A stretch of 44,612 nt of DNA, taken from the IMG/VR virus record IMGVR_UViG_3300024303_000028, positions 1 to 44,612 of that record. The stretch is one strand, 5' to 3'. A program made the translations under genes and the position numbers. This document shows positions 1 to 44,612 of the stretch, in pieces. The DNA is from a virus. Its lineage: Duplodnaviria; Heunggongvirae; Uroviricota; Caudoviricetes. The number at the start of each line of letters is the position of its first letter. Position 1 is the first letter of the stretch. The notes under the pieces were generated by a model. That model worked only from the letters and a program-made list of their open reading frames with translations. It searched no databases and was not told the origin of the DNA.

Positions 1-109
1 GGTGGGTTGCGCTGTCCGGCTGTGCCGTGTGGCGCGTCCGGGGCGGCGTGTCCGCTTCCCCTTCCGCCTGTATAGCGGCGGGGGTGGGGTGGGTTGCGCT
101 GTCCGGCTG
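1..109 (+). repeat. 22-bp exact direct repeat GGTGGGTTGCGCTGTCCGGCTG (1-22 and 88-109)
   Basis: Read directly; the core TGTCCGGCTG recurs at ~150-159 and ~1650-1659; may extend left of the window. Confidence 0.85.
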
Positions 110-26127: not shown

Positions 26128-29100
26128 ATGGCAGATACTTATGGCGTAAAGGTTAAACTGCAATATCAGACTAACAAGTCGGATCTTCGTGGTCAATTGC
26201 AGAGCCTGCTGGATGGCGCTACTCAGAATAGCCCATTGACCATAAAAAACTTTAAGGTTTCCTCGCCAGGATTGCGTAAAGCGCTCAATGCTGGTTTCAA
26301 AGAGGCTAATACTCCCCTTACTTTATCGAACATCAAGTTGAATTTGTCTGCAAATGCATTATCAGATTTACAAACTCAACTTGATTCAAAAGGCTTAACT
26401 CTGACGATCAAGGAGATTAAAGCCGATCAAGCAGTTAACAACCTTCGGACGCAGCTTGTCCGAATGTTAAGTGGTCTGCAGATCTCGGGCGTAAAGGATT
26501 TCTTAGGAGGCGCAGAGATCGCGGAGCAAGGAAAGGCGCTTGAAAGTTATGTAGGTAATTTAGAGCGTCTGAAAACTATGCGTTCTGCCATATCAAAGAG
26601 CGGAGCGCAACTCATGGCCTTTGGCAACAGCAATACTACCGCGGAACTTCAGAGAGCTCTTGTACTATATAGAGAGCTGAATGATCAGGTCAGCCGCGGT
26701 ATTGAGGCAAAGGGCAATTGGGATAACATCGATGGGTTGCAGGAAGAATTAAGAACACTAACTACTTTGATTGCAACTCATAAATCATACCTCGACTCTC
26801 TAAAGCAAGAAGCTACCACCCGTGAGAAGAATGCGGCTGCAGCTAATTCTGCGAACTTACGTGAGTTGCAGAAAATGGAAGCGGCTCTTGAGAAGATCAA
26901 TACAAAGGGTTTCAATCTGGATGTTGATCAGTCTAAAATTGACGTTTTAACAGAGAAGTACAATCGCCTATATGAAGCAATTCAGAAGGCTATGAATACG
27001 CCGGAGATGCGTAACAACGGACATTCCGTGCAAGAACTAAACGCCGGCGTCCGTGCATTAGAGCAGTATGTTAGCGGATTACAGGCTGAGGCAAATGCTA
27101 ACGCGGTTTCCCTCGCGACTGGTAGGCAGTTGATTACACTTCGTACACAAATCAACAATTGGTTACAGAAAAATACGAAGGCAACGCAAACTAACCGGAA
27201 ACAACTTCAGGACTGGGCAACAGAACTTTCGCTTGGTAATGTGAGCACACAAAGATACCAAGAGATTGCAAATGGTGTCAGGGAGATCGATCTCCAGACT
27301 CGCAAAGCCGGCTTATCTGGCAAAACCTTTTTTGAAACATTTAAGAGCGGATTAGAAAAATTCGGTGGCTGGTCACTTGTGACCCGATCGTTGACTTCAG
27401 TGTACAGTACGCTTAAGAAGATGGCATCGGCTGTCATTGAATTAGATAGCGCAATGACTGAACTACGTCGTGTCACTGACTTGTCTGAAGCCGGGTATAG
27501 CAGGTTTATGCAGACCGCAGTGACAACCGCAAAGACGGTTGGTGCGTCTGTAAAGGACACTATTAACGCGACAGCCGACTTCGCACGTCTTGGATATACG
27601 ATCGACGAATCGACACAACTTGCTACAGCTGCACTGACATACAAGAACATTGGCGACGGTATTGAGGATATCTCTGCGGCAACTGAATCTTTGATTTCAA
27701 CAATGAAGGCGTTCGGCATTGAAGCTTCTAGTTCAATGTATGTTGTAGATATGTTCAATGAGGTCGGTAATAAATTCGCGATCTCTTCGAAGGGTATCGG
27801 CGACGCGCTTCAGCGTTCCGCTTCGGCGTTAGCTGAAGGCGGTAATACGATTCAAGAGAGTATTGGATTGATTACCGCCGCAAATGAGGTCATTCAGGAT
27901 CCGGATGTTATTGGTACCGCAATGAAGACGCTTACCATGTATCTACGTGCTGCGAAAACCGCAGCCGAGGATGCTGGGATGTCCACAGATGGTATGGCTT
28001 CTTCTGTTTCAGAGCTTCGTAGCGAATTGTTACAATTAACAGGACAGCGCGTTGATATCATGATTGATGATACCACTTTTAAGAGTACGTATCAGATCAT
28101 GGAAGATTTGGCTGGAATATGGAAACAGTTGGACGATATTACACGCTCGAATATTTTGAATCTGATCGGCGGTAAGCGTAATGCCAACACTTTCTCTGCA
28201 TTGCTAAATAACTTCGATACCGCTGCAGAAGCCATGAAGACGGCCATGGGGGCGGCTGGATCTGCAACACGTGAAAACGAGGAATATCTAAAAAGCATTG
28301 AAGGACGCATTGTCTTGCTTAAAGCATCGTTCGAAGAGCTTGCTAACAGTGTCGTTAATAGTTCGTTGATTAAATGGTTTGTTGACATCATTCGTTATGT
28401 AACAGAATTCGCTACACTCTTGTCAGATATCGGCGTCTTGATCCCAACGCTGTTCACAGGTTTTAGTCTCAAGGGTGTTATTCAGCAACTGTCAACCGTC
28501 AAGTCCCAATTTACTGGTACAATTCAAGATATATTCTCCATGGCAGAGAATAAGGATGGATCGTATAATCTGGATAAGGTTATTAAGACCCTCACGGATT
28601 CAACGTCTTCATATACAGATATTCAAAAAGTTCAATTGGCGCAACTTCTACAGAATTCTGAAGCGTTCCAACAATTAACGGCGGAACAACAAAAACATGT
28701 GCTACAGCAGGTTGGACTAACAAGAGCAGTTTCTGCGTCAACTCAAGGTTTCAGGGCATTCGGTGTTAGCATAAAGCAAGCCTGGGCCGCCATGTCTTTG
28801 TTTGAAAAGGCAACGCTAATTATGGCGGTTATTTCGACAGTATATAATATTATTGCGTCTGTAATAAATGCAGTTGCGGAGTCTGAAGAGGAGGCGCGCG
28901 AAAAGGCTAGAAGCGCTGCAGATGCTGCACAGGATACTGTTAACCACGTTTCAGAATCTGTATCTAAATATTTAGATCTGAACGAAGCGCTCGCAAATGG
29001 CGAAATTACCACAGATAGTTATCAAAAATCTGTTTATGATTTAATATCTGCGTTGCGTCAACAGGGTGACACTGTAGATGGACTTATCGAAAAATACGGT

Positions 29101-32100
29101 GATCTACATGGTGCGATGTTGCTAAGTGCAAGAGATGCAATTAAGGCGAAGCTCCCAGATCTTTCTGGCGGCTTAAGCGCATCCAAGGATAAGCTAATTG
29201 ATTCTGGCGGTCACATAAATTCCAATTGGGGAGATCATACTGCCAATGGTTCGTTAGTTATCAATATAACCCATGGCTCTGGTAGAGATTCAAAAAAGAA
29301 TGGGATTAGCTATCAGGAAGTTGTTAGGGTTATTCGCGAAGCAGGATTGTCTGTTGGTCAACAGGTCTATCTCAAAGACAACTGGTATTCTGTGGCTCTT
29401 GAAGAACTTGACAATATCGAAGATATTATCGCGCGTAGAGATAAGTTACAAAACGCCATCAACTCACTTAGTGCTATTCAGGGGGTCAGTGATCTAGAGT
29501 TTTATAAGCAACTTACTGCAGAATATTCAGGACTAAACAGCTTAATTGATCAGTATATTGCTGACGTAAATGCGTGGAATGAAGCACTTGCAGGCGTTGC
29601 GTTGTATGAGTCCCTTTATGAAAACGGAATCCCTCAAACCCAAGCAGAGTTTGATGCATTACGGCAAACGCTAACCGCAACCCTCGTGTCAACTGGTCAA
29701 ATTGCATCTGTGTCGGGCGATATAGAGGCATCTGCTCAAAGCGCCATAGATGCTGTTTTGATGCAGGAGACGTGGGCGCAAAGCTTCGTCTCTACTCTTC
29801 TTGGAATTCCACCGACTACAAAGAAAGTCGTTTCAGAGCTTTCAAACACAATTTCCGTTTTACAAAAAGCAGCAGACATACTTACTTCCGCAAAGAATGA
29901 CATGGAGCACTATGGAGCTTTGTCTTCTGAGACCATCAACGATATGGCTAGTCAGCTAAAAGCGGGAGAAGACATTCTTGATTATCTGATAACGGAGAAT
30001 GGTGTTCTAAAGCTAAATGAGCAGGCATGGAAGGAACGTTCAAATGCGATTGCTACTGAATCTATTGCCGCATGGACAGAAGAGAAAGACGCCTTACAGG
30101 CCATCCTAGACGCCGCTAAAGATGGCTCTGAGTTCTCTTTGCCTGATGGATTCTCAGACTTAGGAGCCGTTCAATCCAGAGTTGATTTACTCAATTCAGT
30201 AATCACCTTAATTACCGGAATTGGCACCGAGGCATCCACTGCGTCCGGTGAGGTACGTACATTTGCAGATGCAATAAGCGGAGTTTCTGCAGCAGCAGAC
30301 TTATTGACAGATATCAAAAATGGAGAGGATGTTCTTAATCTAATTCGTCAAGCGATGCAATTGGCGGAGACACTAAATAACGGTTCAGACTGGACACAGT
30401 TCATTTCGTCTTTCGACTCTCAGTCTGGAATTGTTTGGAATACAGAAGCAATTAAAAATGCATCAGACGAACTTGTTACGTTGATAACTGAGAATTCTGC
30501 ATTAGCTACTCAATATCCTGGGTTGATTGAGTATGTTCAGAGTTTTGCAAAAGCTGCAGAGAATAGCGGTAATGCATCTGGAGATGCATCAAAGAACGTT
30601 CGTACATTTGCCGGTGCTCTTGGAGCGATCCGTGATGCTGCTAATCTTCTGACTGATATTGAGAGTGGTGAGGGCGATGTCCTCAGTATGATCGAGCAGG
30701 CTGTAAAGATGGCAGAGGCTCTGAACAACGGTCAAGATTGGACGCAATTCATTTCTTCCTTCACAGCAGATGGTGGTATCGTATGGAATACTTCTGCTAT
30801 CGAAGGTTATTCTGACGCTCTCCTTGATGCCGCTCTGAACGGAACTCAACTTGAAGCAACTTTCCCTGGCATTACTCAATGGCTGAAGGACTTTGCCGAA
30901 GCCGCTGATGGTGGAAGTGATCAAGTCCATTCTTTTGCAGATGCTCTTGGAGCGATCCGTGATGCCGCTAATCTTCTGACTGATATTGAGAGTGGTGAGG
31001 GCGATGTCCTCAGTATGATCGAGCAGGCTGTAAAGATGGCAGAGGCTCTGAACAACGGTCAAGATTGGACGCAGTTCATTTCTTCCTTCACAGCAGATGG
31101 TGGTATCGTATGGAATACTTCTGCTATCGAAGGTTATTCTGACGCTCTCCTTGATGCCGCTCTGAACGGAACTCAACTTGAAGCAACTTTCCCTGGCATT
31201 ACTCAATGGCTGAAGGACTTTGCCGAAGCCGCTGATGGTGGAAGTGGTAAGGTTCTTTCGTTCGCGGATGCTCTTGGTTCACTTTCTTCTTTCAATACTT
31301 TTTTCAACAACATACGTGGATCGAAGTCGGATTTGTCTATGCTTCAATCTGTTGTTGAACTTGTTGATTACATCAATACGAATGGCGGGCATGCAAATCT
31401 TTTAGACTTGTACTCTATAGGGGCAAATAACCAAATTGTCTGGAATATGGCGGCTGTAAAGAGCCTCGGCGATGAGTTATATGATCTTACGATTAACACT
31501 TCTGCTTTCCAAAATGCTACGGATAAAGATAAAGCAGCATTACGTGCTTGGATTTTTGAGATAACAAATGCTTCGTCTGGAGCTGAAAATCTCACAGAGG
31601 ATGTAAAAACTCTAGTAGATATATATAATAATCTCTCTCATGTAATACAAAATGTACCTTCAAGCGGAGATTTGGTCGAACTAACATATGATGCTTATAA
31701 TGAGTTAATGCAGATTGATTCACGTTATGCATCAGCTGTTCATTACCAGAATGGTGTGCTTACGCTTAACCGTGATACTTATGCAGCGGTAACGCAGGAA
31801 ATAATCAAAGCGACACAAGCACAAGCTTTGGCTGAAATGCAAACTGTATTAACAAGTAGTGAGTATGTTGATTTGACCAGTCGCATTGGCGAGCTTAATG
31901 AATCAGAACAACAACAACTAGATTCGCTAAATGCAGAAATTATGGGCTACTCCGTTTTGATCTCTGAATTGGAGAATGCGACTAGCGCATATCAGCGGTT
32001 CATTAACGCTTCAACTCAAACAGACAGCAGCAGATATTCAGCCGCCGAGAATGCTCGTAAGGTTATCGAAGATACACTAAACAATGCCGAAAGCGAAATC

Positions 32101-34986
32101 TTCGGCAAGATTGGTCGAGAACAGTATATTGCCGCTATTGATTTCTTGATTGATCCAGATATTGAAGTTGGAACCGACGAGTTCGATGCAGCACTTGCAA
32201 CAATTGACAGATACCTCGAAGAGGGTACGGCAGGTGTGCGAAACTTCTATAACGACTTGGTGCAACACGGCTTTATTGATAGCAATGGAATTCTGAACGC
32301 CAGCATGACAGATATGGCTGCAACGCTTGGTGTCAGCATGGAATTCCTGCGCTCTATGTTTGATGAGCTGAATATGTATCAAGACGAGGATCACAAGGTT
32401 AAGATCGAATGTGACACAGGTGAAGTTGAGTCTGAAGCCTTGTCGGCCGAAGAACAGCTTGTTGCGTTACAGGCCGCTGCGTCTAGTCTTAATGAAACCC
32501 TTGATGTAGATCATACCGTTGCAATCAATACAGACCCAGCCAATACAAGTCTTGGGAAGGTTTCAAATACCCTAACCGGGATTATTAACAAGCTTAACAG
32601 CCTTAGCGGACGTCGCGTGACGACATATGTTCACACCGTAACGACATCGTCAACTGGTGATACTGGCGCGTCTTCAGCGAGCGGCACAAAGAGTGCGGCT
32701 GGCGGTCGTACCCTCGTCGGCGAGCTTGGAATGGAAACTGTTGTTGATCCGAATACTGGAAGCTGGTATACGGTTGGGCGTGGTGGTGCGGAGTTTGTAG
32801 ACTTGCCGCGTGGAGCGATTGTGTTTAACGCTGACCAGACAAAGCGCTTGTTCCAGATGGGGCGTATTGGTAGCCGCGGGGAAGAACGCGGAAGGGCAAT
32901 GGTCGCTGGTGGGCTCCACAACCCGCCAAATCCATTCTTTGCAATGGCTGCGTTTGGAGCAGAAGCGGTCATTCCGTCAATCGTCACAGGTGTTGTAGAC
33001 GGCCTCTATGACCAAGCGAATGGCGCACCTACATTACCTCCCGCAACACCAGATAATAACAATGATGACTCCGGAGACCGCCGTCCAAGTCCTCCAGACC
33101 CATCAAAGAAAATCGACGAGATCTCAAAAACATTTGAAGAATTCAATAAGTATATGGAGCATCTGATCAGGCATCAGGAGCACTTATATGAAGTTGCTGA
33201 GAATGGTCTTGATTTCCCTGGAATGGAAGATTCGTTAACGGAGCAGGCACGCATTTATCGTGAGATGATGGCTGAGGCTCAACAAACCGTTCAAAAGATG
33301 GTTGCTGCGGGCGCTAAGGATACAGATGAGGCTTTACAAAAGGTCGAAGAATCCTACTGGTCGGCTTATTCAAGCCTGCATGATATTCTTGATCAGATAA
33401 ACGCACTATATGTTGATGCTCTAAATGATAAGATAGACGGCGTCCAGTCTGGATACGAAACGTTCTCAACGATGCTCGATGAAATGAGCAAGGATGGTAA
33501 AATTTCCGTAGATACATTCCAGGAGCTTGTTGCAAATGGGTTGGAGTATCTGAACTATCTGGAGCTTGTTGACGGTCAGTATGTCATCAATCAAGAAGCG
33601 CTTGAGAAGATGATTGCGTCCGAGAAGGAACAACTCGCTATTGAACAGGCGCTTGCTTATATCGCACAGATTCGTCAGGCGCTTAGCGATGATGACCCTG
33701 AAAAGGTCGCTAATCTGGTCAATCTTACAAATCAAATCAGCAATAATACGTGGGACTTAGTGTATGCCAATGCTGCGCTTCTGAAGACCATGGGCTTGAC
33801 AGACGATGAATACGCATCTGTTATTCATAACATTGACATGATGAAGAGCCTCACCAGTCAAGTTAATACAAGTCTTGATGACGGTTCTGCGGCATATGAG
33901 AGTCAGCAAGATGCACTTGATAAAATCCTTGACTATACGAAACAGTTGATTCAGTACGAGACAGAGGAAAAGATCAAGGCTATTGAGGATGAGATTGATG
34001 CGTATGAAGAACTGGTCAATCTGCGTAAGGAAGCGTTAAAGACTGCAAAGGATGAAGCAGATTATTCAGACGATATCGCTAATCGTACAAAAGAGATCGC
34101 TGCTCTTGAAGCACGCATTGCCCAACTTTCTTTAGATGATAGCAGAGATGCCCAGGCAGAACGAGCCGCACTCGAGGAAGAGTTGGCAAAATTGCAGGGG
34201 GATCTCGCCGATGTTCAGGGAGACCATGCATACGACGCTCAGGTTGCGGCCTTGGATAAAGACGCCGAAACATATCGTGAGAGCAGAGAAAAGGAGATCG
34301 CAGAACTCGAGGCATCAATTAGTTCTGAAGAAAAGTTATATCAAGCTGCGCTACAACGAATTGATGCCGGATGGGATACGTTATACGGTGAGTTGATTGC
34401 TTGGAATACTGAGGCCGGTAATTCTTTGAATAGCGATATTACGTCAAATTGGGATCTTGCGTTGGAGGCAGCAAAGAGATACGGCTCTTATGTAGATGCC
34501 ATCGTTGCGCATACAGGCAATCCTATGACAGTATCCTCCCTTGGCGTTGGAACACTACCCATCTATCATGATGGTGGCGTCGTGTCTGTCAATGGTATAA
34601 AGCGCAATGAAGTTGTAGCTGTCCTCGAAGACGGCGAGGAGGTTCTGACGAAGAAGCAACGCACAGGTTTGTATCGAATCGTCGATTTCGCAAAGGAACT
34701 CTCAAATCGTCTGGGCACGGCGATCAAGGAGATTGCGCTTCCATTTAGTCCGATGACACCAGCCTTAGCCGGTGTCGATGGAGTCCATGGTACAGTTGTA
34801 TCAAACCAGAATTCTATGAACTTCTCACCCGAGATTACTGTGCAAATCACTCATAATGGCGATATGTCTGATAGCGACGCACGTTCTTATGGTCGCCAAA
34901 TCGGCAATATCGCTATGAAGGAGATGCAAAACGCCTTCGAGCGCCGTGGTATAAGCGGTGTATTTGGAGGAAACTTGAGGCAATAA
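26128..34986 (+). CDS. Tail tape measure protein, TP901-type core (2952 aa)
   Basis: ELDSAMTELRRVTD...DTINATADFARLG core; long helical/coiled-coil repeats; GRTLVGELGME and YHDGG C-terminal motifs. Confidence 0.93.
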   Translation: MADTYGVKVKLQYQTNKSDLRGQLQSLLDGATQNSPLTIKNFKVSSPGLRKALNAGFKEANTPLTLSNIKLNLSANALSDLQTQLDSKGLTLTIKEIKADQAVNNLRTQLVRMLSGLQISGVKDFLGGAEIAEQGKALESYVGNLERLKTMRSAISKSGAQLMAFGNSNTTAELQRALVLYRELNDQVSRGIEAKGNWDNIDGLQEELRTLTTLIATHKSYLDSLKQEATTREKNAAAANSANLRELQKMEAALEKINTKGFNLDVDQSKIDVLTEKYNRLYEAIQKAMNTPEMRNNGHSVQELNAGVRALEQYVSGLQAEANANAVSLATGRQLITLRTQINNWLQKNTKATQTNRKQLQDWATELSLGNVSTQRYQEIANGVREIDLQTRKAGLSGKTFFETFKSGLEKFGGWSLVTRSLTSVYSTLKKMASAVIELDSAMTELRRVTDLSEAGYSRFMQTAVTTAKTVGASVKDTINATADFARLGYTIDESTQLATAALTYKNIGDGIEDISAATESLISTMKAFGIEASSSMYVVDMFNEVGNKFAISSKGIGDALQRSASALAEGGNTIQESIGLITAANEVIQDPDVIGTAMKTLTMYLRAAKTAAEDAGMSTDGMASSVSELRSELLQLTGQRVDIMIDDTTFKSTYQIMEDLAGIWKQLDDITRSNILNLIGGKRNANTFSALLNNFDTAAEAMKTAMGAAGSATRENEEYLKSIEGRIVLLKASFEELANSVVNSSLIKWFVDIIRYVTEFATLLSDIGVLIPTLFTGFSLKGVIQQLSTVKSQFTGTIQDIFSMAENKDGSYNLDKVIKTLTDSTSSYTDIQKVQLAQLLQNSEAFQQLTAEQQKHVLQQVGLTRAVSASTQGFRAFGVSIKQAWAAMSLFEKATLIMAVISTVYNIIASVINAVAESEEEAREKARSAADAAQDTVNHVSESVSKYLDLNEALANGEITTDSYQKSVYDLISALRQQGDTVDGLIEKYGDLHGAMLLSARDAIKAKLPDLSGGLSASKDKLIDSGGHINSNWGDHTANGSLVINITHGSGRDSKKNGISYQEVVRVIREAGLSVGQQVYLKDNWYSVALEELDNIEDIIARRDKLQNAINSLSAIQGVSDLEFYKQLTAEYSGLNSLIDQYIADVNAWNEALAGVALYESLYENGIPQTQAEFDALRQTLTATLVSTGQIASVSGDIEASAQSAIDAVLMQETWAQSFVSTLLGIPPTTKKVVSELSNTISVLQKAADILTSAKNDMEHYGALSSETINDMASQLKAGEDILDYLITENGVLKLNEQAWKERSNAIATESIAAWTEEKDALQAILDAAKDGSEFSLPDGFSDLGAVQSRVDLLNSVITLITGIGTEASTASGEVRTFADAISGVSAAADLLTDIKNGEDVLNLIRQAMQLAETLNNGSDWTQFISSFDSQSGIVWNTEAIKNASDELVTLITENSALATQYPGLIEYVQSFAKAAENSGNASGDASKNVRTFAGALGAIRDAANLLTDIESGEGDVLSMIEQAVKMAEALNNGQDWTQFISSFTADGGIVWNTSAIEGYSDALLDAALNGTQLEATFPGITQWLKDFAEAADGGSDQVHSFADALGAIRDAANLLTDIESGEGDVLSMIEQAVKMAEALNNGQDWTQFISSFTADGGIVWNTSAIEGYSDALLDAALNGTQLEATFPGITQWLKDFAEAADGGSGKVLSFADALGSLSSFNTFFNNIRGSKSDLSMLQSVVELVDYINTNGGHANLLDLYSIGANNQIVWNMAAVKSLGDELYDLTINTSAFQNATDKDKAALRAWIFEITNASSGAENLTEDVKTLVDIYNNLSHVIQNVPSSGDLVELTYDAYNELMQIDSRYASAVHYQNGVLTLNRDTYAAVTQEIIKATQAQALAEMQTVLTSSEYVDLTSRIGELNESEQQQLDSLNAEIMGYSVLISELENATSAYQRFINASTQTDSSRYSAAENARKVIEDTLNNAESEIFGKIGREQYIAAIDFLIDPDIEVGTDEFDAALATIDRYLEEGTAGVRNFYNDLVQHGFIDSNGILNASMTDMAATLGVSMEFLRSMFDELNMYQDEDHKVKIECDTGEVESEALSAEEQLVALQAAASSLNETLDVDHTVAINTDPANTSLGKVSNTLTGIINKLNSLSGRRVTTYVHTVTTSSTGDTGASSASGTKSAAGGRTLVGELGMETVVDPNTGSWYTVGRGGAEFVDLPRGAIVFNADQTKRLFQMGRIGSRGEERGRAMVAGGLHNPPNPFFAMAAFGAEAVIPSIVTGVVDGLYDQANGAPTLPPATPDNNNDDSGDRRPSPPDPSKKIDEISKTFEEFNKYMEHLIRHQEHLYEVAENGLDFPGMEDSLTEQARIYREMMAEAQQTVQKMVAAGAKDTDEALQKVEESYWSAYSSLHDILDQINALYVDALNDKIDGVQSGYETFSTMLDEMSKDGKISVDTFQELVANGLEYLNYLELVDGQYVINQEALEKMIASEKEQLAIEQALAYIAQIRQALSDDDPEKVANLVNLTNQISNNTWDLVYANAALLKTMGLTDDEYASVIHNIDMMKSLTSQVNTSLDDGSAAYESQQDALDKILDYTKQLIQYETEEKIKAIEDEIDAYEELVNLRKEALKTAKDEADYSDDIANRTKEIAALEARIAQLSLDDSRDAQAERAALEEELAKLQGDLADVQGDHAYDAQVAALDKDAETYRESREKEIAELEASISSEEKLYQAALQRIDAGWDTLYGELIAWNTEAGNSLNSDITSNWDLALEAAKRYGSYVDAIVAHTGNPMTVSSLGVGTLPIYHDGGVVSVNGIKRNEVVAVLEDGEEVLTKKQRTGLYRIVDFAKELSNRLGTAIKEIALPFSPMTPALAGVDGVHGTVVSNQNSMNFSPEITVQITHNGDMSDSDARSYGRQIGNIAMKEMQNAFERRGISGVFGGNLRQ
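30615..31246 (+). repeat. Near-perfect in-frame tandem duplication inside the TMP, period 327 bp (109 aa)
   Basis: 30615-30919 vs 30942-31246 differ at only two synonymous positions that I could find (GCT/GCC, CAA/CAG). Confidence 0.92.
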
Positions 34987-34990
34987 CCTA

Positions 34991-35020
34991 AAGGCCGGGC
35001 GTGCCAATACGCCCGGCCTT
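34991..35020. terminator. 12-bp perfect hairpin between TMP and Tal-like gene (weak U-tract)
   Basis: AAGGCCGGGCGT-gccaat-ACGCCCGGCCTT. Confidence 0.5.
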
Positions 35021-35045
35021 ATTCAAGGAAGGAGGTGACGCACAT

Positions 35046-38000
35046 TTGATTATTGATTTTTCCTTGCTCGATCCGAACGAGCGTCCATTGCTAATTCTGA
35101 GAAACGCATCTGATGTTCCAATGGGAGTTCTTTCAAACGTGATGCAGGTCACGCCAAACATCATGTACAATGAAATCTCTGAGCTAGATTTCGATATTCC
35201 TGCATATGCAGATGGTGTTGAAACACCAATGTACGATGAACTGGTTGGTATGCGCATCATTGAACTTCAGGGCATCGGGCAGTTCGTCCTGATGAATCCC
35301 AAGGAGTCTGGTGACGGCGTCACCAGAAAGAAGCAGTGTACAGCATACTCCTTGGAGTACGAGTTTACACGAAAGAAGATAACCGTACCAAAGGGCACAT
35401 ATAAGTTCTACGACGAAGACGACGCCGAGAACTCATTGCTAGGTATGCTAATGAATGATATGCCGTCATGGAAGATCGGCACTGTGCCAGCTTCTATTCG
35501 AGGGAAGTACCGCACATTTGAGGTAAACAACGAAAACCGATATAACTTCATGAAAGGCACTGCTCAGAAAACGTACGGGTGTATTTTTAACTTTGATACA
35601 TATACCCGCACAGTCTATATTGATGACGCAAGTCGTGAGCCCGAGACCACAGCAATATATCTCTCTAACAATAATCTTGCTTCAGAGATTAACGTGGAGG
35701 AGCTTACCGAAGATATTGTTACAAGGCTTGATGTGAATGGAGCCGAAGGTGTGTCAATTCGAGATGTGAATCCAAACGGCACAAATAAGATCATCAATTT
35801 GGATCACTTCATGACGCTAAAGAACTTCCAGCAGGAGTTGATTGATAAATACTTTGCTTGGAAGCAGATCAATGCGGATAATCGTCAGGCATTTTACAGC
35901 TTGTCAATCCGACATACCCTTGCTCTTGAACAGCGTGTTGCCGCAGAAGCCAGACTAACAGATCTGCGCGGCGAAATGACAAGCCTTGAAAATCTGCAGG
36001 CCGTTGCGATCCAGGCGATTTCGCAAGGACTAAAGACCCAGTCAGATCTTGATGAGATCAATGTGCAGATTACCGCAAAGCAGGCTGAGATTTCAGCACA
36101 GGAACAGCATATTCAGCTACTGCGAGACAATGCCGACGCGTTGCTATCCGAGCTACAAATGATTCGTGACGCTTGTAGCTTCGCCAAGTATTTCACACTT
36201 GATGAGCAGATTATGCTCGACCGATACATCAAGGATGATGAGATTTCAGACAGCAGCTTTGTGACTACATCAACATCGTATGTCCCTACCGCCAACTCTT
36301 CAGTTGCTGAAGCCATTGATTTGTCTGTATCTGGAGACACTATCACCAAGATAGAGTCCGCCGGAGGAAGCACAATTCTTGAAATCAAGGATGGCAAGCT
36401 TCACATCGCAGATCTATTAGATGCTTCCATCATTTCAGCGACGGCAGAGCACTATCCATCCGACAATACTTTTGTTGCGTCGTTTTATTTGAAGGACGCT
36501 TCTTATCATAGTGAAACATATCCACAAGCATGTCTCACGATAACAGGCTCTGCGGAGCAGATAAATGTAAGTGAGTCAGAGAAAGTTGTCGGGTCGACAG
36601 TTGCTAACGCAATGATCTACTTCTCTCTGAATGTGAGTGAGTACGAAAAGCGTAGTGTCGCGTGGGATCTTTATGAGTACGGAGAGGCGATGTTGGACAA
36701 GCTGTCGCGACCAGCATACGCATTCAGCGTGAAGAGCACAAACTTCCTTGTAAATGAGGACTACGACGCATTTCGTAAGGCACTTCGTTTGGGTGAACGC
36801 ATCTATTTAGAGTTGAAGGAAGACCACGTTATCGAACCTGTTTGCATCGGCGTAAGCTTCTGCTACGACGATCCGGATAGCTTAGAGCTACTTTTCAGCG
36901 ATAAGTTCGTATCCGGTGAGCGAGGTAATGGTCTGATTGACCTGCTCGAACAAAGCGTGTCAATGGGTAAGACGCTTAATGCAAGCCAGTACACTTACTC
37001 CCAATTTGAGGATTCAGGAGCCAGTTCTACAATCGCGGAGTTTATGACGTCCGCACTCGACGTAGCCAAAAATGCACTGTTCTCTTCTTCTGGCAACGCT
37101 GTGTCTTGGGATGGGACGGGTCTACGTCTCCGGAGATGGGTAGATGGATCTCAAACCGCATACAGTCCTGAACAAATGTGGCTTGTGAACAACAGCCTGC
37201 TGCTAACGGCAGATAATTGGCATACGGCGCAGATGGGTATCGGCAAGTTCTCAGACCCGAATCTGGGAGAATGCTGGGGCATAGTTGCTCCAACCATTGT
37301 CGGTACGATGTTAGCAGGCTCTAAGCTTGTGATTGAAAGCGAGAAGAAGGATGGCGGCACAGCAGTATTCCGCGTTGATTCAGAAGGTGCGCGTCTGTTC
37401 AATAGCAACTTTGCGATTTCCGACGCGAAGCGTTGCATTCTTCTCGACCCCGGCGTCGGTATGTTAATCGGTCCTCCGAATTCATACAGCAAGAACGAAG
37501 AAGGCGTATATACCGTTGATGCAGATCTTGTGAATTTCCATGTAGATGACGACGGCAATGTTTTCCTTCGTGGTACCATTACTGCCACTGACCTGAAGAT
37601 CGGTGATCAGATTGGCACTGATTCACAGGCTGGTCTTGTTACGATCTCCGCGGGAAGTATTTTGAATCTTTCAGCCGGCGATGCTGTCAACATTCAGGGT
37701 GATGGCGGAATCACGATGTCTGCAAAGGGCGGTATCACCCTACTTGCAGGACAACTTGCACTTGGATCGGATGCGAATAAGCTCACTTCAGACGGCGTCC
37801 TGTCCCTTGCTTCTGGCAACATCCTGCTTGATGGTCCGAACAATGCAGTCACAATTGGTAATGCTAATGGCACGGTGAATATCGGTACAGACGGAACTGG
37901 CTTAATTAACCTTGCAACCTATCAGGTTAAGAGCAGCACTGTATCAACTTCGTACACTTCTAAGTACTCTACCGGCGGAACAAAAGCAGACGCGGATATC

Positions 38001-38888
38001 AGTGCTGAGTTCGAATATACTGCACTTGACGATGAAGGCAAAGAGTCAGATGCGAAGTTTACAATTGAGACAACATATACATCTGCCGTTGCATCAACCA
38101 ATGATCCTCCGTCTATTACCGACGGTAAGCTCTTGCAGTTGGTGTACCAGAATCGCGGCCTGAATATCTATGCTGATGCGTCTGAGGACGAAATGATTTT
38201 GACCCCAAGCGTTTCCAATGGTCATCTAATGGGCTGGAATCTGATCAATGCGGTAAGTATGGTTGCAACAAATCTAAGCGCAGCCACAATCGTTGCAAGT
38301 AGTATCTACTTGCCCGGTGAGGATGGCAAGCTAATAGCGGTTGCCGATCAGAAGTGGACTATTGAGAAAATTGCTGAGATTCTGAAGGATGATGATATTC
38401 TCCCCGCAATCAAATCAAAGCTGAATAGCGCTTACTGGCGGGCATACTCCCATAGTCATAAGTTAACCGTTGGCGAAGACGGAAGTGTTTCTTGCGGCGG
38501 TGTCACAAATGTTTCGGCGGCATCCTCAACTTTTAATATAGCCGACACAACGTTCTTCAAGGATGCTGTGTCGGCTGCCGCACCAGCTACAGTTTCAAGA
38601 GTAGCTACATATGACTCTTCCGCTATTGCTTATAACGTTACGGTTGTCGTTAAATCTGGCGATGATACCCGTTACCCCTTTGATCTTATACCCATTAGCG
38701 CAAGCAATGCATATAATGCAGGATGGAATGCTTGTAGAAACGCATGTTCACCAGCAAATGTGTATACGATTTCAGAGTATGCCCCGGGTACACTATATGT
38801 GTATACCAACGGCGTATACTCTTCTGCTGGCTCTAGCTGGGTAAAAGTAAAAGCAGCTACTGCCTATACTCTCCCAGCAGAAAAATAA
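35046..38888 (+). CDS. Tal-like tail tip/spike protein (YomG-like) with coiled coil and beta-helix-like C-half
   Basis: SD AGGAGGTG 35030-35037 plus TTG 35046; prophage-tail-like N-domain; Gly/Ser/Ile/Asn-rich repeats (ISAGSILNLSAGDAVNIQG). Confidence 0.72.
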   Translation: MIIDFSLLDPNERPLLILRNASDVPMGVLSNVMQVTPNIMYNEISELDFDIPAYADGVETPMYDELVGMRIIELQGIGQFVLMNPKESGDGVTRKKQCTAYSLEYEFTRKKITVPKGTYKFYDEDDAENSLLGMLMNDMPSWKIGTVPASIRGKYRTFEVNNENRYNFMKGTAQKTYGCIFNFDTYTRTVYIDDASREPETTAIYLSNNNLASEINVEELTEDIVTRLDVNGAEGVSIRDVNPNGTNKIINLDHFMTLKNFQQELIDKYFAWKQINADNRQAFYSLSIRHTLALEQRVAAEARLTDLRGEMTSLENLQAVAIQAISQGLKTQSDLDEINVQITAKQAEISAQEQHIQLLRDNADALLSELQMIRDACSFAKYFTLDEQIMLDRYIKDDEISDSSFVTTSTSYVPTANSSVAEAIDLSVSGDTITKIESAGGSTILEIKDGKLHIADLLDASIISATAEHYPSDNTFVASFYLKDASYHSETYPQACLTITGSAEQINVSESEKVVGSTVANAMIYFSLNVSEYEKRSVAWDLYEYGEAMLDKLSRPAYAFSVKSTNFLVNEDYDAFRKALRLGERIYLELKEDHVIEPVCIGVSFCYDDPDSLELLFSDKFVSGERGNGLIDLLEQSVSMGKTLNASQYTYSQFEDSGASSTIAEFMTSALDVAKNALFSSSGNAVSWDGTGLRLRRWVDGSQTAYSPEQMWLVNNSLLLTADNWHTAQMGIGKFSDPNLGECWGIVAPTIVGTMLAGSKLVIESEKKDGGTAVFRVDSEGARLFNSNFAISDAKRCILLDPGVGMLIGPPNSYSKNEEGVYTVDADLVNFHVDDDGNVFLRGTITATDLKIGDQIGTDSQAGLVTISAGSILNLSAGDAVNIQGDGGITMSAKGGITLLAGQLALGSDANKLTSDGVLSLASGNILLDGPNNAVTIGNANGTVNIGTDGTGLINLATYQVKSSTVSTSYTSKYSTGGTKADADISAEFEYTALDDEGKESDAKFTIETTYTSAVASTNDPPSITDGKLLQLVYQNRGLNIYADASEDEMILTPSVSNGHLMGWNLINAVSMVATNLSAATIVASSIYLPGEDGKLIAVADQKWTIEKIAEILKDDDILPAIKSKLNSAYWRAYSHSHKLTVGEDGSVSCGGVTNVSAASSTFNIADTTFFKDAVSAAAPATVSRVATYDSSAIAYNVTVVVKSGDDTRYPFDLIPISASNAYNAGWNACRNACSPANVYTISEYAPGTLYVYTNGVYSSAGSSWVKVKAATAYTLPAEK

Positions 38889-39284: not shown

Positions 39285-40088
39285 ATGGCATTTTACGGAA
39301 GCTCTTTCTCCTTTGACGGAGTATCGTGCAGAGACTTCAATTTGATGCTGTATGATCTCGGTAGTGATCAACAGGATAATGTTGATTTTGCAAGCCCTGT
39401 TTCCGTTGTGGAAGAGGCCGTCGGACAAAACTGGCGGCCTCACTTCCTCGGTGTAAAGTTCGATAAGAAGCTGACGTTCAAGTTAGTCTTTGGCGTGGAT
39501 GAATGCCGTATCGAACGTCGTGAATACCTGTCACGGCAGGAAATTGATGACATCGCATCTTGGTTGACCGGTCATCAAACATATAAGTATCTGGAGATTG
39601 AGCAGGAAGACTTGGATCATGTACGGTACAAATGCATGGTTTCTGAACTGACGCTGATTACTCATGGTCAGGAGCCATGGGCAATGAGTGCTACCATCAC
39701 ATGCGATGGCGCATATGCATATACCTACCCCAAGACATTCTCCTACACAATCAACGGAACTCGTGATATTTCGTTTTACAACGAGAGCAGCTACAACGGG
39801 TACTACCGTCCCATAGTGAGGATCGAGTCCAATACGGGCTCGTCCTTTTCTATTGCTAACATTTCGGATGGTGGCCGCATCACGGAGCTTACAGACATCC
39901 CGGAAGGATTGTCAGAGATCATCATCGATATGGAGCACGGCACTATTACAAGCAATAGTAACGCGAATCTATATAAGCATTTCAATTTCAGATATCTGAA
40001 ACTAAAGCGGGGGTATAACAAGTTGCATGTCTCTGGTAACTGTGTATTGAAGATTCAATGCGAATTCCCCGTAAACACTGGGGGTTGA
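39285..40088 (+). CDS. Distal tail protein (Dit, YomH-like)
   Basis: FSFDGVSCRDFNL N-terminus and YLKLKRGYNKLHV C-terminus typical of Dit; SD AGGAGG. Confidence 0.72.
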   Translation: MAFYGSSFSFDGVSCRDFNLMLYDLGSDQQDNVDFASPVSVVEEAVGQNWRPHFLGVKFDKKLTFKLVFGVDECRIERREYLSRQEIDDIASWLTGHQTYKYLEIEQEDLDHVRYKCMVSELTLITHGQEPWAMSATITCDGAYAYTYPKTFSYTINGTRDISFYNESSYNGYYRPIVRIESNTGSSFSIANISDGGRITELTDIPEGLSEIIIDMEHGTITSNSNANLYKHFNFRYLKLKRGYNKLHVSGNCVLKIQCEFPVNTGG

Positions 40089-40096
40089 TACTGTCA

Positions 40097-43000
40097 ATGA
40101 ATATTCTTGTTAACGTTGTCAATCAGAAAATGAAGGTTGTTAGCGGATTCAGGGATATTGTTGAGGGTTCTCAGGAGTTTGTCCGGTTTGAATTTAACCT
40201 TACCGACGAATGGAGCGGACTGATGACGTTCGCCCAATTTCGTCAGGGAGAGAACGCATACAACAAATATCTCGACGAAAACAACTGCGTGTGCTTGCCT
40301 CCTGAAATCAAGGCTGGCACATGTACGGTGATGCTATACGGAGCCGGCGGCACCGTAATTGGCACCACGAATTATGTCACTCTAAATATCAACGAGTATA
40401 ATCTGGTAACAGATTCTCAAAGTACAGAGATTTCTGAGTCTCTATATACGCAACTGGTGACCAAAGTTAATACTCTGCTAACTTGGAATGAACAGCAAAC
40501 TGCGGAGCTTACTGAGGCCGATCGTCAGTTGCAGATTCAGATCAATGAGAAGGCCGCAGCGAAGGATCTCGAAGCGGAGATTATTCGAGCGAAGTCTGCA
40601 GAGCAGGCCAACAGGGTTGCCATCGAACTGAAGGCAAGTCAAAAACAGGTTGACGATCTTGAGCTTAAAGTGACCGAGCTTCAGAATAACGAGTATGTTG
40701 CAGGACTGATCGAAGAGGCCGTTATTGCCGAAATGAACGAATACCTTGCGAGTGGTGCTTTGGCCAATATGACCATTGCAGACGCCAGCATTACTCGTGC
40801 CAAGGTGAATGCTGAGATTGAGGCTGCGCTGCAGGCTGGTGAAAATGCCATGCAACCGAGCGTCTACGATCCGCAAGGGCTAAAGGTTGATATTTATTCT
40901 TATGCACAAGGCCGTGCTGATACCGTGCAGCAGAATCTGAACAAGGTAAAGGAAGAGATCCAGGACGCCTACAGGCTTACTGATACGGTCGTCTATCAGA
41001 ATCTCGGAGATGCTGTTCGTGGAGCGGTAACGCTATCCAGAAACTATGCACAGGCGCTGCTTGCGGACTACAAGGCTTTTACAATCAAGGTGGTTGACGA
41101 GCTTCCTGTGGTTGGTGAAAATCAGACTTTCTACTTACTTCCAAACGAATCCGGTACCGGATATGACAAGTACTGGTGGATTACCGACAACGATGGCAAT
41201 AGCAAGTGGGACGTCTTTGGCAGCTCGTCTACGCTGGTTGTAGAAGAACTTCCGGAAGTTGGCGATTCCGATGTCGATTACATTCTGAAGTCCTCCGCTG
41301 GTTGTCTGTACTATAAGTATATCGACGGATACTGGGAGGTAGTCGCAGGCTCCCTCGCCTTTGTCGGAAGCGCGTTACCAGACGCTGGTAATGAGTTTAC
41401 TGATTACTATATTCTGAATGCATCTGGTTCATATGAGCACTACCGTTTCATTAACGGATCGTATCATGGTATCGGCGGAAATGCATACACCCGTGACGAA
41501 GTTGATGAAAAAATTGCAGCGGTCAACGAGTCTATCAAAACTGTTCAAAACGGCGTCGATGCTAATGCCGGTCAGATCACGGCGAACGCTTCCAACATTA
41601 CTGCGTTGAGTCGTTCTCTGGATCGCCTTGTTCAAGACTTTAACAACCTTGATACCGAAGGTTACACCTACTATGCTAACATCGACACCAGCGGCGACAA
41701 CGGCGCAATCTTTACCTTATACCAGGTAAAGGGCGATGTTGAGGAGATTGCGTCTCAGTTCGTGATTCCAGCAGGCGGTGGCGGCGGTGGTCAAACCTCT
41801 ACTACGAATCTGGTTGTTGATAAGATCACCGCGTCTCCTCTGGTTCTTACTCCTACCGATAAGGCAGAAATCGCTATCAACTATTCTTCTACCGACAGTG
41901 ACGGTGAAGAGGTAGACGGCACTTACACTTGGAAGATCGGCAGCGAAATTATCGCAAGCGGTCCGCTGGTGCAGGGTGTGAACACCTATGACCTGACCGA
42001 ACATGTTAAGGTTGGTACGCAAAAGCTGACTCTGACTGTAGTTGATGCCGGCGGCAGCATTGTCGTTAAGTCATGGACTGTGCAAGTAGTTGACGTTCGT
42101 CTTGCTTCTACTTTCAATGATCGTACGACCTTTACGGTGAATCAGAATGCCACTTTCAGTTTTACTCCATACGGTGCTGTATCTAAGACTGTCCATTTTA
42201 TTTTGGATGGCGAGGAACTCGAACCTATGGTAACAACCGCATCCGGCACACCTCAATCATATACAATTCCTGCGCAGACCCACGGCGCTCATCTGCTGGA
42301 GTGCTACATTACAGCTACGGTCAATAACAAGCCGATTGAGACTCAGCATATCTATAAGGATATTGTCTGGCTTGATCCCGCGTCCGATGTTCCGGTGATT
42401 CGTTGCATATACCGAAACGATTATTATGGCGACGTGAAGGTTCGTCAATACGATACTTTGCCGATCGAGTATAGCGTATTCGATCCAACAACCAACTACC
42501 CGGTTGTTCAGCGTTATGTTAACAGTACGCTATCCGGAACTGAGAATCACGAGACTCCGCATGGCACTTGGAACTTTAAGTCCGACACAGTTGAAAAATA
42601 CACGTTGACACTCGAGTGTCGCGGAACCTCTGTATCTATCGTAGTCGATGTTCAGGAACTTGGTATCGACGTCGCCCCTGTATCTGGCAATCTTGAGGTT
42701 GACTTTAACCCCTCCGGTATGACGAATACATCCGCGGATAGGGTGTGGTCAAATGGAACTTACGGCATGACCCTGTCAGATAATTTTGACTGGGCGAATG
42801 GCGGATATCAGGTTGACGAAAACGGCGACACCTATTTCTCCGTACGTGCCGGTACCCGTTGCACGCTTGATTATCACTTCTTCGGAAATGACATTCAGCG
42901 CAACCCCAGCACGCAGGGTGCAGAGATGAAGATCGTCTTTATGGTGGAAAATGTGCAAGACATTAACGCCGTGTGGATGACAAACTACGATCCCAGCTCC

Positions 43001-44612
43001 AAGGTGGGCATCCAGATGAACGCCCATAACGGCTGGCTGAAAACGAACAATGCATTGGAGTCTGACTCCGCAGATGTCGTTGCAACGAACACTTATCTGT
43101 ACATGCCATATTCCGAGGAAGATATCATCGAGATGGATATCAATATTGATGTACTGGATCAGGAAGATGATACAGCGCAGGCATTTGCGATGTCCTACGA
43201 AGACGGCGTCCCGAGTAAGGCATTTGTGTACGGAAAGACAGATAACTTCTTCCAGTACAATTCTCAGCCCATTGTGATTGGTTCAGACTACTGTGACGTC
43301 CGTATTTACCGTCTGAAGATCTATTCCGCTGCTCTTACTACTGAGGGCATCATGCGTAACTTCATCGCGGACTCTCGTGACTCCACAACCATGCTGGACC
43401 GCTATGATCGCAACTGCATCTACTTCAACCGCGATACCAACGAATACACCCCCTACAGCGGAGAAGGTGTACTGGATCCTGAAAAGCTCGCGCCAATGAT
43501 TCCCAATGTCAAGGTGCTGATGCTGGAAACGGATCATTTCACCACGAGCAAAAAGACATTCGTGAAGGCAAATCTGCGGTGTATCCACGCGCCTAACGGA
43601 ACGACTTATCCGGGTGACCCATACTACGACAACTGGTACTTTGAAAACGGCTGGCATTCTGGCCAGGGTACGACCTCAGATAACTACGGTAACAGTTCCC
43701 GTAATGTTGACTTCCTATTCAACTGTGACGGAACGCATAAGCCGTCAGACAAGGTTGATGCAGAGCCGGGGTATGTATCTAAGGTTACGCTTGGATATAA
43801 GACTGAGGACGCTTATACCGAAGCTGTCACAGATTGGAAGGGTGACGAGGGCAAGGTTGCGTTGACTCGCACCTCTATTCCCAACAACTTCTTCAATCTG
43901 AAGGTGAACGTTGCATCCAGCGAAAACGTGAATAACGCGTTGCTCGCGAAGCGATACAATGATTATCTTCCCTACATCTCTCCAGCCAAGAAGCGGAACG
44001 AGAATACGAAGAATACGATGGAATTCGTTCCTGCGGTATTGTTCCTGCGTGAAACGAATCCTGATATTTCTACTCATAATGAGTTCCTCGACACGGAATG
44101 GCACTTCTATTCTATCGGTAATATTGGCGACTCCAAGAAGACGGACTACACACGTGCATATGACCCGGAAGATATGAATGAGTTTGTTATCGAAATTTCC
44201 GATAACACGAAAAACAACGCCATCTTCCAGTCCGGCGTGTATCTGGACGAGCAGGGCAATCGTCAGATCGAAGACTTCACGATTACAGAATCTGAAGATG
44301 ATGGCGAGATTATCCAGACCCCTGTATCCATCGCTAAGCCTTCTTCTTTTGTTTATCCCATTACGATGGATGAGTGGAACAATGCGAAGAACATGCGTCG
44401 CTGGTGTCTGGATAACGAAGGATTCGATGGAGACCATTCTTTCGAGCCACGTTACGCATGCTGCGGCGACTATCGTGACGGCAAGCTGGTCAATGATACA
44501 ACCGGTCGAGGTAAGGCTCAAGTTGCGATCAACAACAACGTATGGCGCGCCTTCTATCGTTGGGTGGTTACATCAACCGACGAGGAGTTCGTGAATGAGC
44601 TTGACCAGTGGT
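40097..44612 (+). CDS. Very large tail/baseplate protein, partial (>1505 aa, runs off the window): BppU-like N-domain, coiled coil, ELP repeats, Ig-like/LamG-like domains, CotH-kinase-like domain
   Basis: Translated by hand from ATG 40097 (SD GGGGG) with no stop to the window end; GQGTTSDNYG at 43661-43690; LKIYSAALT LamG-like end. Confidence 0.82.
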   Translation, partial: MNILVNVVNQKMKVVSGFRDIVEGSQEFVRFEFNLTDEWSGLMTFAQFRQGENAYNKYLDENNCVCLPPEIKAGTCTVMLYGAGGTVIGTTNYVTLNINEYNLVTDSQSTEISESLYTQLVTKVNTLLTWNEQQTAELTEADRQLQIQINEKAAAKDLEAEIIRAKSAEQANRVAIELKASQKQVDDLELKVTELQNNEYVAGLIEEAVIAEMNEYLASGALANMTIADASITRAKVNAEIEAALQAGENAMQPSVYDPQGLKVDIYSYAQGRADTVQQNLNKVKEEIQDAYRLTDTVVYQNLGDAVRGAVTLSRNYAQALLADYKAFTIKVVDELPVVGENQTFYLLPNESGTGYDKYWWITDNDGNSKWDVFGSSSTLVVEELPEVGDSDVDYILKSSAGCLYYKYIDGYWEVVAGSLAFVGSALPDAGNEFTDYYILNASGSYEHYRFINGSYHGIGGNAYTRDEVDEKIAAVNESIKTVQNGVDANAGQITANASNITALSRSLDRLVQDFNNLDTEGYTYYANIDTSGDNGAIFTLYQVKGDVEEIASQFVIPAGGGGGGQTSTTNLVVDKITASPLVLTPTDKAEIAINYSSTDSDGEEVDGTYTWKIGSEIIASGPLVQGVNTYDLTEHVKVGTQKLTLTVVDAGGSIVVKSWTVQVVDVRLASTFNDRTTFTVNQNATFSFTPYGAVSKTVHFILDGEELEPMVTTASGTPQSYTIPAQTHGAHLLECYITATVNNKPIETQHIYKDIVWLDPASDVPVIRCIYRNDYYGDVKVRQYDTLPIEYSVFDPTTNYPVVQRYVNSTLSGTENHETPHGTWNFKSDTVEKYTLTLECRGTSVSIVVDVQELGIDVAPVSGNLEVDFNPSGMTNTSADRVWSNGTYGMTLSDNFDWANGGYQVDENGDTYFSVRAGTRCTLDYHFFGNDIQRNPSTQGAEMKIVFMVENVQDINAVWMTNYDPSSKVGIQMNAHNGWLKTNNALESDSADVVATNTYLYMPYSEEDIIEMDINIDVLDQEDDTAQAFAMSYEDGVPSKAFVYGKTDNFFQYNSQPIVIGSDYCDVRIYRLKIYSAALTTEGIMRNFIADSRDSTTMLDRYDRNCIYFNRDTNEYTPYSGEGVLDPEKLAPMIPNVKVLMLETDHFTTSKKTFVKANLRCIHAPNGTTYPGDPYYDNWYFENGWHSGQGTTSDNYGNSSRNVDFLFNCDGTHKPSDKVDAEPGYVSKVTLGYKTEDAYTEAVTDWKGDEGKVALTRTSIPNNFFNLKVNVASSENVNNALLAKRYNDYLPYISPAKKRNENTKNTMEFVPAVLFLRETNPDISTHNEFLDTEWHFYSIGNIGDSKKTDYTRAYDPEDMNEFVIEISDNTKNNAIFQSGVYLDEQGNRQIEDFTITESEDDGEIIQTPVSIAKPSSFVYPITMDEWNNAKNMRRWCLDNEGFDGDHSFEPRYACCGDYRDGKLVNDTTGRGKAQVAINNNVWRAFYRWVVTSTDEEFVNELDQW

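Follow-up and report, generated by a model that had tools for sequence, protein, structure and literature searches.

A predicted giant baseplate fibre joining a CotH kinase fold to a retroelement-diversified tip in a 110-kb phage genome

Introduction

CotH domains are listed among the targets of the diversity-generating retroelements (DGRs) of human microbiomes (Ye 2014), and later surveys have placed them in very large proteins. The targets of category f1 are ~2000 amino acids (aa) long, show weak CotH and Laminin_G_3 motifs, carry variable repeats (VRs) of the CLec3 type and have phage neighbours (Wu 2018, PMC5758913). Viral cluster PC_00012 includes a CotH-like kinase for which a role in host signalling was speculated (Roux 2020, bioRxiv 10.1101/2020.04.01.020958), the fusion of CotH with a lectin has been called ‘currently unstudied’ (Benler 2021), and domain group 3 brings together variable proteins of >2000 aa with CotH (5JDA), carbohydrate-binding and leucine-rich repeat (LRR) motifs (Macadangdang 2024, bioRxiv 10.1101/2024.11.15.621889). 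The Hankyphage DGR has been shown experimentally to diversify a ‘tail fiber’ target gene, in accounts that leave the kinase domain unmentioned (PMC12135933; PMC6199706). Here we describe a giant open reading frame (ORF) of this class that starts near the 3′ end of a 44,612-nt stretch of caudoviricete DNA, which in its whole length is called the window below. It spans bases 1-44612 of IMGVR_UViG_3300024303_000028, a virus record of 110185 bp that is complete and has terminal repeats.

The product of this ORF is very probably a BppU-type baseplate fibre with a complete CotH kinase fold and a DGR-diversified tip. The original prediction, which was made from the window alone and took the ORF for a tail or baseplate protein carrying a CotH-like atypical kinase domain, is supported and proves largely right in its overall interpretation. 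The protein belongs to a class that has been reported in several surveys but has had no experimental study; it is not new as a type, and for this window it amounts to one more member of an already surveyed class, opening no new question.

Throughout the text, residue numbers follow P0002, the full translation of the giant ORF (2643 aa), and P0003 denotes a natural relative of 2630 aa that is 99% identical to it. Two alignments are used for the kinase-like segment: A1, which holds 68 diverged segments of the family, and A2, which holds 28 authentic PF08757 domains taken from Clostridia-class genomes. Positions beyond 44612 are those of the full record.

One giant gene in a tail module

The frame is free of stops from 40058 to 44611 (1518 codons, 1505 of them from the ATG at 40097) and leaves the window at its end, just as had been claimed for a stop-free frame of more than 1505 codons; in the full record it extends to genome position 47989 and encodes 2643 aa, or 2630 aa from Met14. 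Met14 (ATG 40097) seems the likelier start, since the upstream gene stops just before it, homologs share this start and P0003 has 2630 aa. The ORF sits in a same-strand structural module together with terminase, portal, tape measure, minor tail protein, a 120-aa ORF and a Dit-like gene. It is a single gene of ~2630 codons, and the complete 110-kb phage that carries it in its tail module comes from metagenomes of human-gut type. The gene and its kinase-like domain lie in the window as follows.

40097-44612, plus strand: 5′ 57% of the giant fibre gene, residues 14-1518; the rest lies outside the window, to 47989
43505-44612, plus strand: CotH-fold kinase domain, N-lobe and start of the C-lobe, residues 1150-1518; the domain ends at residue 1747 (genome 45298)

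A complete CotH fold

The protein belongs to a large family, for which an exhaustive homolog search gave 823 representatives when clustered at 50% identity and upwards of 1500 clusters at 90%. The AlphaFold model of the CotH segment built on the A1 alignment reached a pLDDT (predicted local distance difference test) of 91.8 and a pTM (predicted template modelling score) of 0.91, and in a Foldseek search its sole significant matches were the two B. cereus CotH kinase entries (5JD9/5JDA). Residues 1150-1747 make up a complete CotH fold, with both N- and C-lobes, into which ~260 residues are inserted. The claim of a CotH-like kinase domain is thereby borne out, and so is the structural match to CotH that had been proposed as a check on it.

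Profile comparisons within the family point the same way. PF08757 is matched individually by 11 of the 68 relatives at E<=1 (best 4.8e-06), with no other family recurring, and the CotH profile derived from A2 by 8 of the 68 at E<1e-3. When the two alignments were compared directly with hhalign, the C-lobe was aligned at E 7e-4. Furthermore, the profile of the CotH segment matches the Hankyphage target at 3.8e-24, with the same motifs.

Invariant residues and the question of catalysis

The part of the active site that lies within the window is marked by two elements of the N-lobe.

43661-43678, plus strand: G-Q-G-T-x-S motif, residues 1202-1207, positional counterpart of the CotH R-x-x-G-x-S-S motif
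43901-43903, plus strand: Lys1282, possibly the ATP-binding lysine, within the N-x-K-x-N strand (119 of 119 relatives have it)

All the motifs quoted in the original prediction were found where it had placed them: G-Q-G-T-T-S at nt 43661, F-N-L-K-V-N at 43892 and F-Y-S-I-G-N-I-G at 44105. The first of them, in the form G-Q-G-T-x-S, is invariant in 115 of 115 relatives and, judged by position and motif likeness, may be the counterpart of R-x-x-G-x-S-S. The codon of the catalytic Asp lies at genome 44669, 57 bases past the window end, and the catalytic Asp/Asn motifs that had been expected beyond 44612 are indeed present as D1538, N1543 and D1602. In the hhalign comparison of A1 with A2, D1538 and N1543 align to the N-x-D-x4-N loop of CotH and Y1601-D1602 to its invariant W-D; transitive mapping, from the A2 profile through the relatives with the shortest inserts to the A1 columns, agrees on D1538 and Y1601-D1602. 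These two aspartates are invariant in 130 (D1538) and 133 (D1602) relatives.

B. subtilis CotH is inactivated by mutation of its Asp residues D228 and D251 (PMC7821199). The two Asp columns of the CotH profile are 22 apart, against 23 between D228 and D251, and from this spacing and their invariance, rather than from an alignment that includes the B. subtilis sequence, the invariant columns probably correspond to those two residues. Across 115-133 cluster representatives at <50% identity, the following never vary: K1165, G-Q-G-T-x-S, K1282, E1375, E1379, D1538, K1542, N1543, D1602 and D1604. Because every active-site-like residue is invariant at this level of divergence, we favour a working enzyme, and on balance we think it likely, with a good measure of doubt, that the domain is an ATP-dependent phosphotransferase and not a decayed relic. 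The same residues are also the ones to mutate.

Alternatively, the CotH fold might be kept as a binding or scaffolding module in a fibre that is purely an adhesin with several binding modules, its ligand being a nucleotide, a phosphorylated glycan or a host surface protein, by analogy with the fungal CotH invasins that bind GRP78. We regard this as unlikely, though worth serious attention. The fibre meets its host extracellularly, where ATP is scarce; the domain is flanked by binding modules (Ig-like, a sandwich resembling a carbohydrate-binding module (CBM) at model residues 624-701, and LRR); its N-lobe has diverged past profile detection; and the fold is decorated by the ~260 inserted residues. 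Invariance of residues would equally fit an obligate binding of nucleotide without phosphotransfer. What counts against a scaffold is that the equivalents of the catalytic Asp/Asn and the metal-binding Asp, together with several Lys and Glu residues, are invariant throughout the 115-133 representatives, whereas pseudokinases usually lose some such residues.

The catalytic loop itself, residues 1538-1543 (genome 44669-44686), reads D-N-R-A-K-N, and its Lys is invariant in 130 of 130 relatives. This Lys is absent from the consensus of the 28 cellular CotH domains and is a family-specific feature of the active site.

An N-terminal anchor of the baseplate type

Upstream of the conserved core, the first 560 residues comprise a succession of smaller elements, and the gene is preceded by the presumed partner of the first of them.

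39285-40088, plus strand: Dit-like distal tail protein (by Pfam and PHROG), presumed docking partner of the fibre N-domain
40097-40396, plus strand: BppU-like beta-sandwich, residues 14-113, baseplate anchor (by model and Foldseek)
40439-41062, plus strand: long helical stalk, residues ~128-335, presumed trimeric coiled coil (model helices 115-323)
41090-41467, plus strand: three tandem repeats of ~45 residues each with an L-P-x-x-G plus aromatic motif (in the translation)
41768-41794, plus strand: poly-glycine linker (from the sequence) joining the lineage-specific N-terminal 560 residues to the conserved core

Residues 14-113 were modelled as a beta-sandwich with a pLDDT of ~73-91 per 10-residue block. 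Foldseek matched this N-domain to the TP901-1 baseplate (4v96, E 4.6e-06) and also to 9m8o and 6v8i, the NF5 and 80alpha baseplates being among the matches; against 3uh8, the isolated N-domain of TP901-1 ORF48 (BppU), it gave E 2.3e-03 with a template modelling (TM) score of 0.50 on the target. A BppU-like N-terminus, as originally proposed, is thus supported by fold (4v96, 3uh8). An atlas lead to BppU_N was weak: it scored 0.92, and in one cluster 10% of the members carried the family. The proposed coiled-coil segment corresponds to a helical stalk in the structure model, whose helices (model residues 115-323) are of low confidence when modelled as a monomer, and the three repeats that had been reported at ~41090-41480 are there, with L-P-x-x-G at 41096, 41243 and 41369. 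The repeat segment has a weak match to phrog_24103 at residues 331-378.

The elements before and after the linker differ sharply in how they are conserved. Collinear homology to the Hankyphage target and to phrog_14959 starts at the poly-glycine linker. Of 85 diverged full-length relatives, no more than 1-3 possess the anchor or either helical segment and 18 possess the repeat segment, whereas 84-85 keep the modules after the linker (Ig-like, the module called LamG, CotH and LRR). The first 560 residues are a lineage-specific anchor module, distributed as one would expect if virion anchors were exchanged in front of a functional core that is itself conserved.

The Dit-like protein matches Pfam DUF6558 and DUF6558_C and, weakly, SPP1_Dit, as well as PHROG 33 ‘distal tail protein Dit’ (7.5e-18). 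Prediction of a complex between it and the fibre N-domain scored 0.42, against 0.01 for the best control, which weakly favours docking. The pass mark of this procedure is reached by 58 of 80 solved complexes and by 2 of 110 mismatched pairs; a pass at <=0.60, where only 7 of the 80 solved complexes and both passing mismatches fall, is more often wrong than right. Contact agreement between runs was at least 0% and the pLDDT of the partner at least 64, and the predictor may have passed the pair because it had already learned the solved structure of the TP901-1 baseplate.

These features bear on whether the protein is part of the virion at all. It could instead be a secreted or cell-surface product that serves the lysogen or the infected cell, for example as an adhesin or effector: virion membership of the fibre is predicted from genes and not from proteomics, Clostridia genomes often encode cellular CotH proteins of 500-1400 aa, and Macadangdang et al. 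include related proteins in their list of DGR variable proteins of Bacteroides but do not assign them to virions. We consider this very improbable, given that the gene lies on the same strand between the Dit-like gene and the DGR, inside the tail module, that the fold of its N-domain is that of baseplate proteins in three solved siphophage baseplates, that its N-terminal module is swapped among phage lineages as anchors are, and that inspection of the N-terminus by eye shows no signal peptide.

A tip diversified by a retroelement

Beyond the window, the gene ends in a DGR target. The coding region closes with the 128-nt VR (genome 47853-47980), whose template repeat (TR) copy lies at 48915-49042. 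The two differ at 18 sites, every one of them a TR adenine; 17 of the 18 affect the first or second position of a codon. The pair is the sole adenine-biased repeat pair found in the genome when both orientations were searched. A reverse transcriptase (429-aa ORF, RVT_1 2.5e-17) follows ~300 nt downstream of the TR, and the tip itself matches DUF6273 at residues 2439-2643 (E 1.3e-09). Between VR and TR lies an ORF of ~267 aa (genome 48085-48888), in the position of Avd and twice the usual size of Avd, for which no Pfam match was found. The suggestion that such a protein may end in a diversified receptor-binding domain, for which a downstream DGR was to be sought, is upheld as regards the diversified tip by the VR/TR pair and the adjacent reverse transcriptase.

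P0002 and P0003 show 47 differences. The 20 adenine-templated codons account for 13 of these and the protein outside the VR for 34, while the remaining 23 VR codons show none. Since the templated codons differ in this way and the other VR codons do not, the DGR has diversified the tip in nature and the element has been active. An earlier measure, the entropy of VR sites over 119 relatives (2.82 bits at templated sites vs 1.74 bits), is confounded by differing templates and was dropped in favour of the P0003 comparison.

The presence of a hypervariable tip raises the possibility that the kinase works on the host surface or once it has been delivered, with the diversified lectin tip as its hypermutable targeting module. 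Kinase core and DUF6273-like tip occur together in 52 of 85 full-length relatives by sequence and in 12 of 16 by Pfam, and a contact between kinase and VR has been proposed from a model that places them close to each other (Roux et al., bioRxiv 10.1101/2020.04.01.020958). Such a role is nonetheless improbable: a source of ATP is absent outside the cell, ~850 residues that include LRR and other domains separate the kinase from the VR, and some members of the family have BspA-type LRRs in place of the DGR-type tip. We judge it a similarly long shot that an active kinase carried on the virion would have its substrate, either a part of the host surface or envelope or the fibre itself, recruited by the hypervariable lectin tip and would thereby control adsorption; if true, it would be an enzyme with DGR-programmable targeting.

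Two further genes were noted in connection with the retroelement. A DUF4376 protein of 248 aa (genome 50569-51315) directly follows the DGR reverse transcriptase, with a slight overlap. A second reverse transcriptase is encoded on the minus strand at genome 99484-100071 (396 aa, RVT_1 3.7e-20); it is unrelated to that of the DGR (17% identity over a 119-residue BLASTP alignment, E 0.033), and a second DGR was rejected, as no adenine-biased repeat pair was found for it in either orientation.

Modules between the linker and the tip

Two conserved modules precede the CotH fold in the window.

41795-42697, plus strand: Ig-like region, residues ~580-880 (sub-threshold Big_7; kept in 84 of 85 relatives; aligns with Hankyphage)
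42698-43462, plus strand: conserved module, ‘LamG-like’ in the original prediction, residues ~881-1135 (kept in 85 of 85 relatives; aligns with Hankyphage)

The Ig-like assignment is limited to a sub-threshold Big_7 match at residues 684-745 and to PKD matches in one relative; the Ig-like segment claimed earlier thus retains a weak indication, with no family match above threshold. The LamG-like segment fared less well, Pfam scans of 16 segments (P0002 and 15 relatives) giving no Laminin_G match at E<=0.01 and hence no support. Weak Laminin_G_3 matches have been reported for the giant f1 targets (Wu 2018, PMC5758913). After the CotH fold comes the CBM-like beta-sandwich (model residues 624-701), and downstream of the CotH segment LRR families and DUF6273 recur among the relatives in Pfam scans, some relatives without a DGR-type tip having BspA-type LRRs instead.

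Weighing the reading as a CotH-bearing baseplate fibre

Several results weigh against reading P0002 as a baseplate fibre with a CotH kinase fold and a diversified lectin-type tip. PF08757 has no match with the whole protein, with the segment alone at E<=10 or with the genome in six frames, so that the search with this model that had been put forward as a check came out negative for P0002. The family profile found no CotH chain among PDB sequences. In the hhalign comparison, the C-lobe alignment has a probability of 26%, and that of the N-lobe is not significant (E 0.16), which leaves the roles of N-lobe residues unmapped. At the anchor, residues 1-560 have no match to the PF10651 (BppU_N) hidden Markov model (HMM) at E<=10. 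For the tip, a C-type-lectin fold is presumed from the DUF6273 match and the position of the VR, and matching contigs occur in metagenome-assembled genomes (MAGs) of several phyla, closest to Clostridia/Lachnospiraceae, a mixed taxonomy that assigns no host. Lastly, a kinase on an extracellular fibre has no obvious supply of ATP after virion release.

Searches of NCBIfam and of PDB sequences, run with the segment as well as the entire protein, likewise gave no CotH match. Antibody chains that the family profile matched among PDB sequences were set aside as chance matches through the common G-Q-G-T motif. Because P0002 has no PF08757 match, 11 of 68 relatives do have one and hhalign reaches E 7e-4 at that low probability, fold and motifs place the CotH domain of P0002 in a divergent sister group of CotH, outside the membership that Pfam defines.

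In the reading that we prefer, the fibre would dock on the Dit ring through its BppU-like domain, probably as a trimer. From the linker on, its core, which hundreds of diverged phages share, runs through the Ig-like region, the conserved module called LamG, the CotH domain with its insertions of ~260 residues, the CBM-like sandwich and the LRRs to the DUF6273 tip, some 20 codons of which are rewritten from the template repeat by the adjacent reverse transcriptase. The hypervariable tip would be the receptor-binding site that lets the phage track changing host surfaces, as Mtd does in BPP-1. Since ATP is available only in the cytoplasm, the CotH domain would most likely act inside the infected cell, during fibre synthesis and virion assembly. 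By analogy with the patterning of the spore coat by CotH, it may there phosphorylate components of the virion, the fibre among them, or an envelope precursor.

Surrounding genes and genome features

Upstream of the Dit-like gene, the order is a 2952-aa tape measure (26128-34986), a 1295-aa minor tail protein and the 120-aa ORF. The position of the minor tail protein gene (35001-38888), between tape measure and Dit-like gene, is unusual, and its phrog_6211 match covers the N-terminal 420 residues only; Hankyphage has a similar minor tail protein, of 1338 aa, directly before its giant target. Within the tape measure gene, ~327 nt are duplicated in tandem at 30598-31277 (95% identity over 353 nt), and 30253-30443 holds a third copy that is weaker. 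At the ends of the record, the 97-nt terminal repeat (window 1-109; genome 109855-110185) belongs to an array of ~87-nt tandem repeats at the right end, and may be an assembly break inside that array and not a true end. The first 2 kb (1-2000) have a G+C content of 62.6%, against ~47% in the remaining window.

Comparison with known systems

The giant fibre family is very common in gut phages, including the globally distributed Hankyphage, and its most conserved part is the enzyme fold. The p00 target of Hankyphage (BK010646, 31489-38226, annotated hypothetical) is collinear with P0002 in BLASTP (1e-20 over 563-1241 and 2e-10 over 1795-1953) and is best taken as its homolog. A tblastn search of GenBank phages with the CotH segment gave a single weak record, PV036416, and missed Hankyphage at that threshold. 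The likeness of the two proteins runs from the poly-glycine linker on, from Ig to LRR, and includes the motifs Q-G-T-S-S, D-x-R-A-K-N and Y-D-x-D-T. They differ in their N-terminal 560 residues and share merely 23% identity over the aligned parts; the P0002 genome is a 110-kb record with terminal repeats, whereas that of Hankyphage is a 43-kb Mu-like prophage, and the putative DGR accessory ORF of the P0002 genome has ~267 aa in contrast to the small Avd of Hankyphage-type systems.

With the proteins of category f1, PC_00012 and group 3, P0002 shares a length of >2000 aa, a CotH-like domain, modules of carbohydrate-binding type, LRRs and a C-terminal VR, presumably of C-lectin type, next to a DGR reverse transcriptase. 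It departs from them in the BppU-like anchor at the N-terminus, the stalk and the three repeats, which recur in only 1-18 of the 85 relatives.

Bacillus CotH (5JD9/5JDA) is 12-13% identical to the P0002 domain. The latter adds ~260 residues, some of them as a beta-rich insert that separates the catalytic loop from the metal-binding Asp, and has in its D-N-R-A-K-N loop an extra invariant Lys. Whereas the Bacillus protein is a free 42-kDa coat protein, the phage domain stands mid-chain in a 2630-aa fibre, and its activity is predicted only.

At the other end of the molecule, TP901-1 BppU (ORF48) and its counterparts in 80alpha and NF5 resemble P0002 in having an N-terminal beta-sandwich followed by a helical stalk, encoded by a gene after Dit. 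TP901-1 BppU, however, has ~300 aa and holds a separate receptor-binding protein, whereas P0002 fuses the anchor to ~2300 further residues, among them the enzyme fold and the presumed receptor-binding tip. The Mtd DGR of BPP-1 and that of P0002 both mutate a C-terminal VR specifically at adenines, and both have the TR and reverse transcriptase downstream; the VR lies in the receptor-binding domain of a tail fibre, a role that is presumed for the P0002 tip. Mtd itself is a protein of 381 aa without an enzyme domain, and the VR scaffold of P0002 is DUF6273 (CLec3-type in the Wu classification) and not a lectin of the Mtd type.

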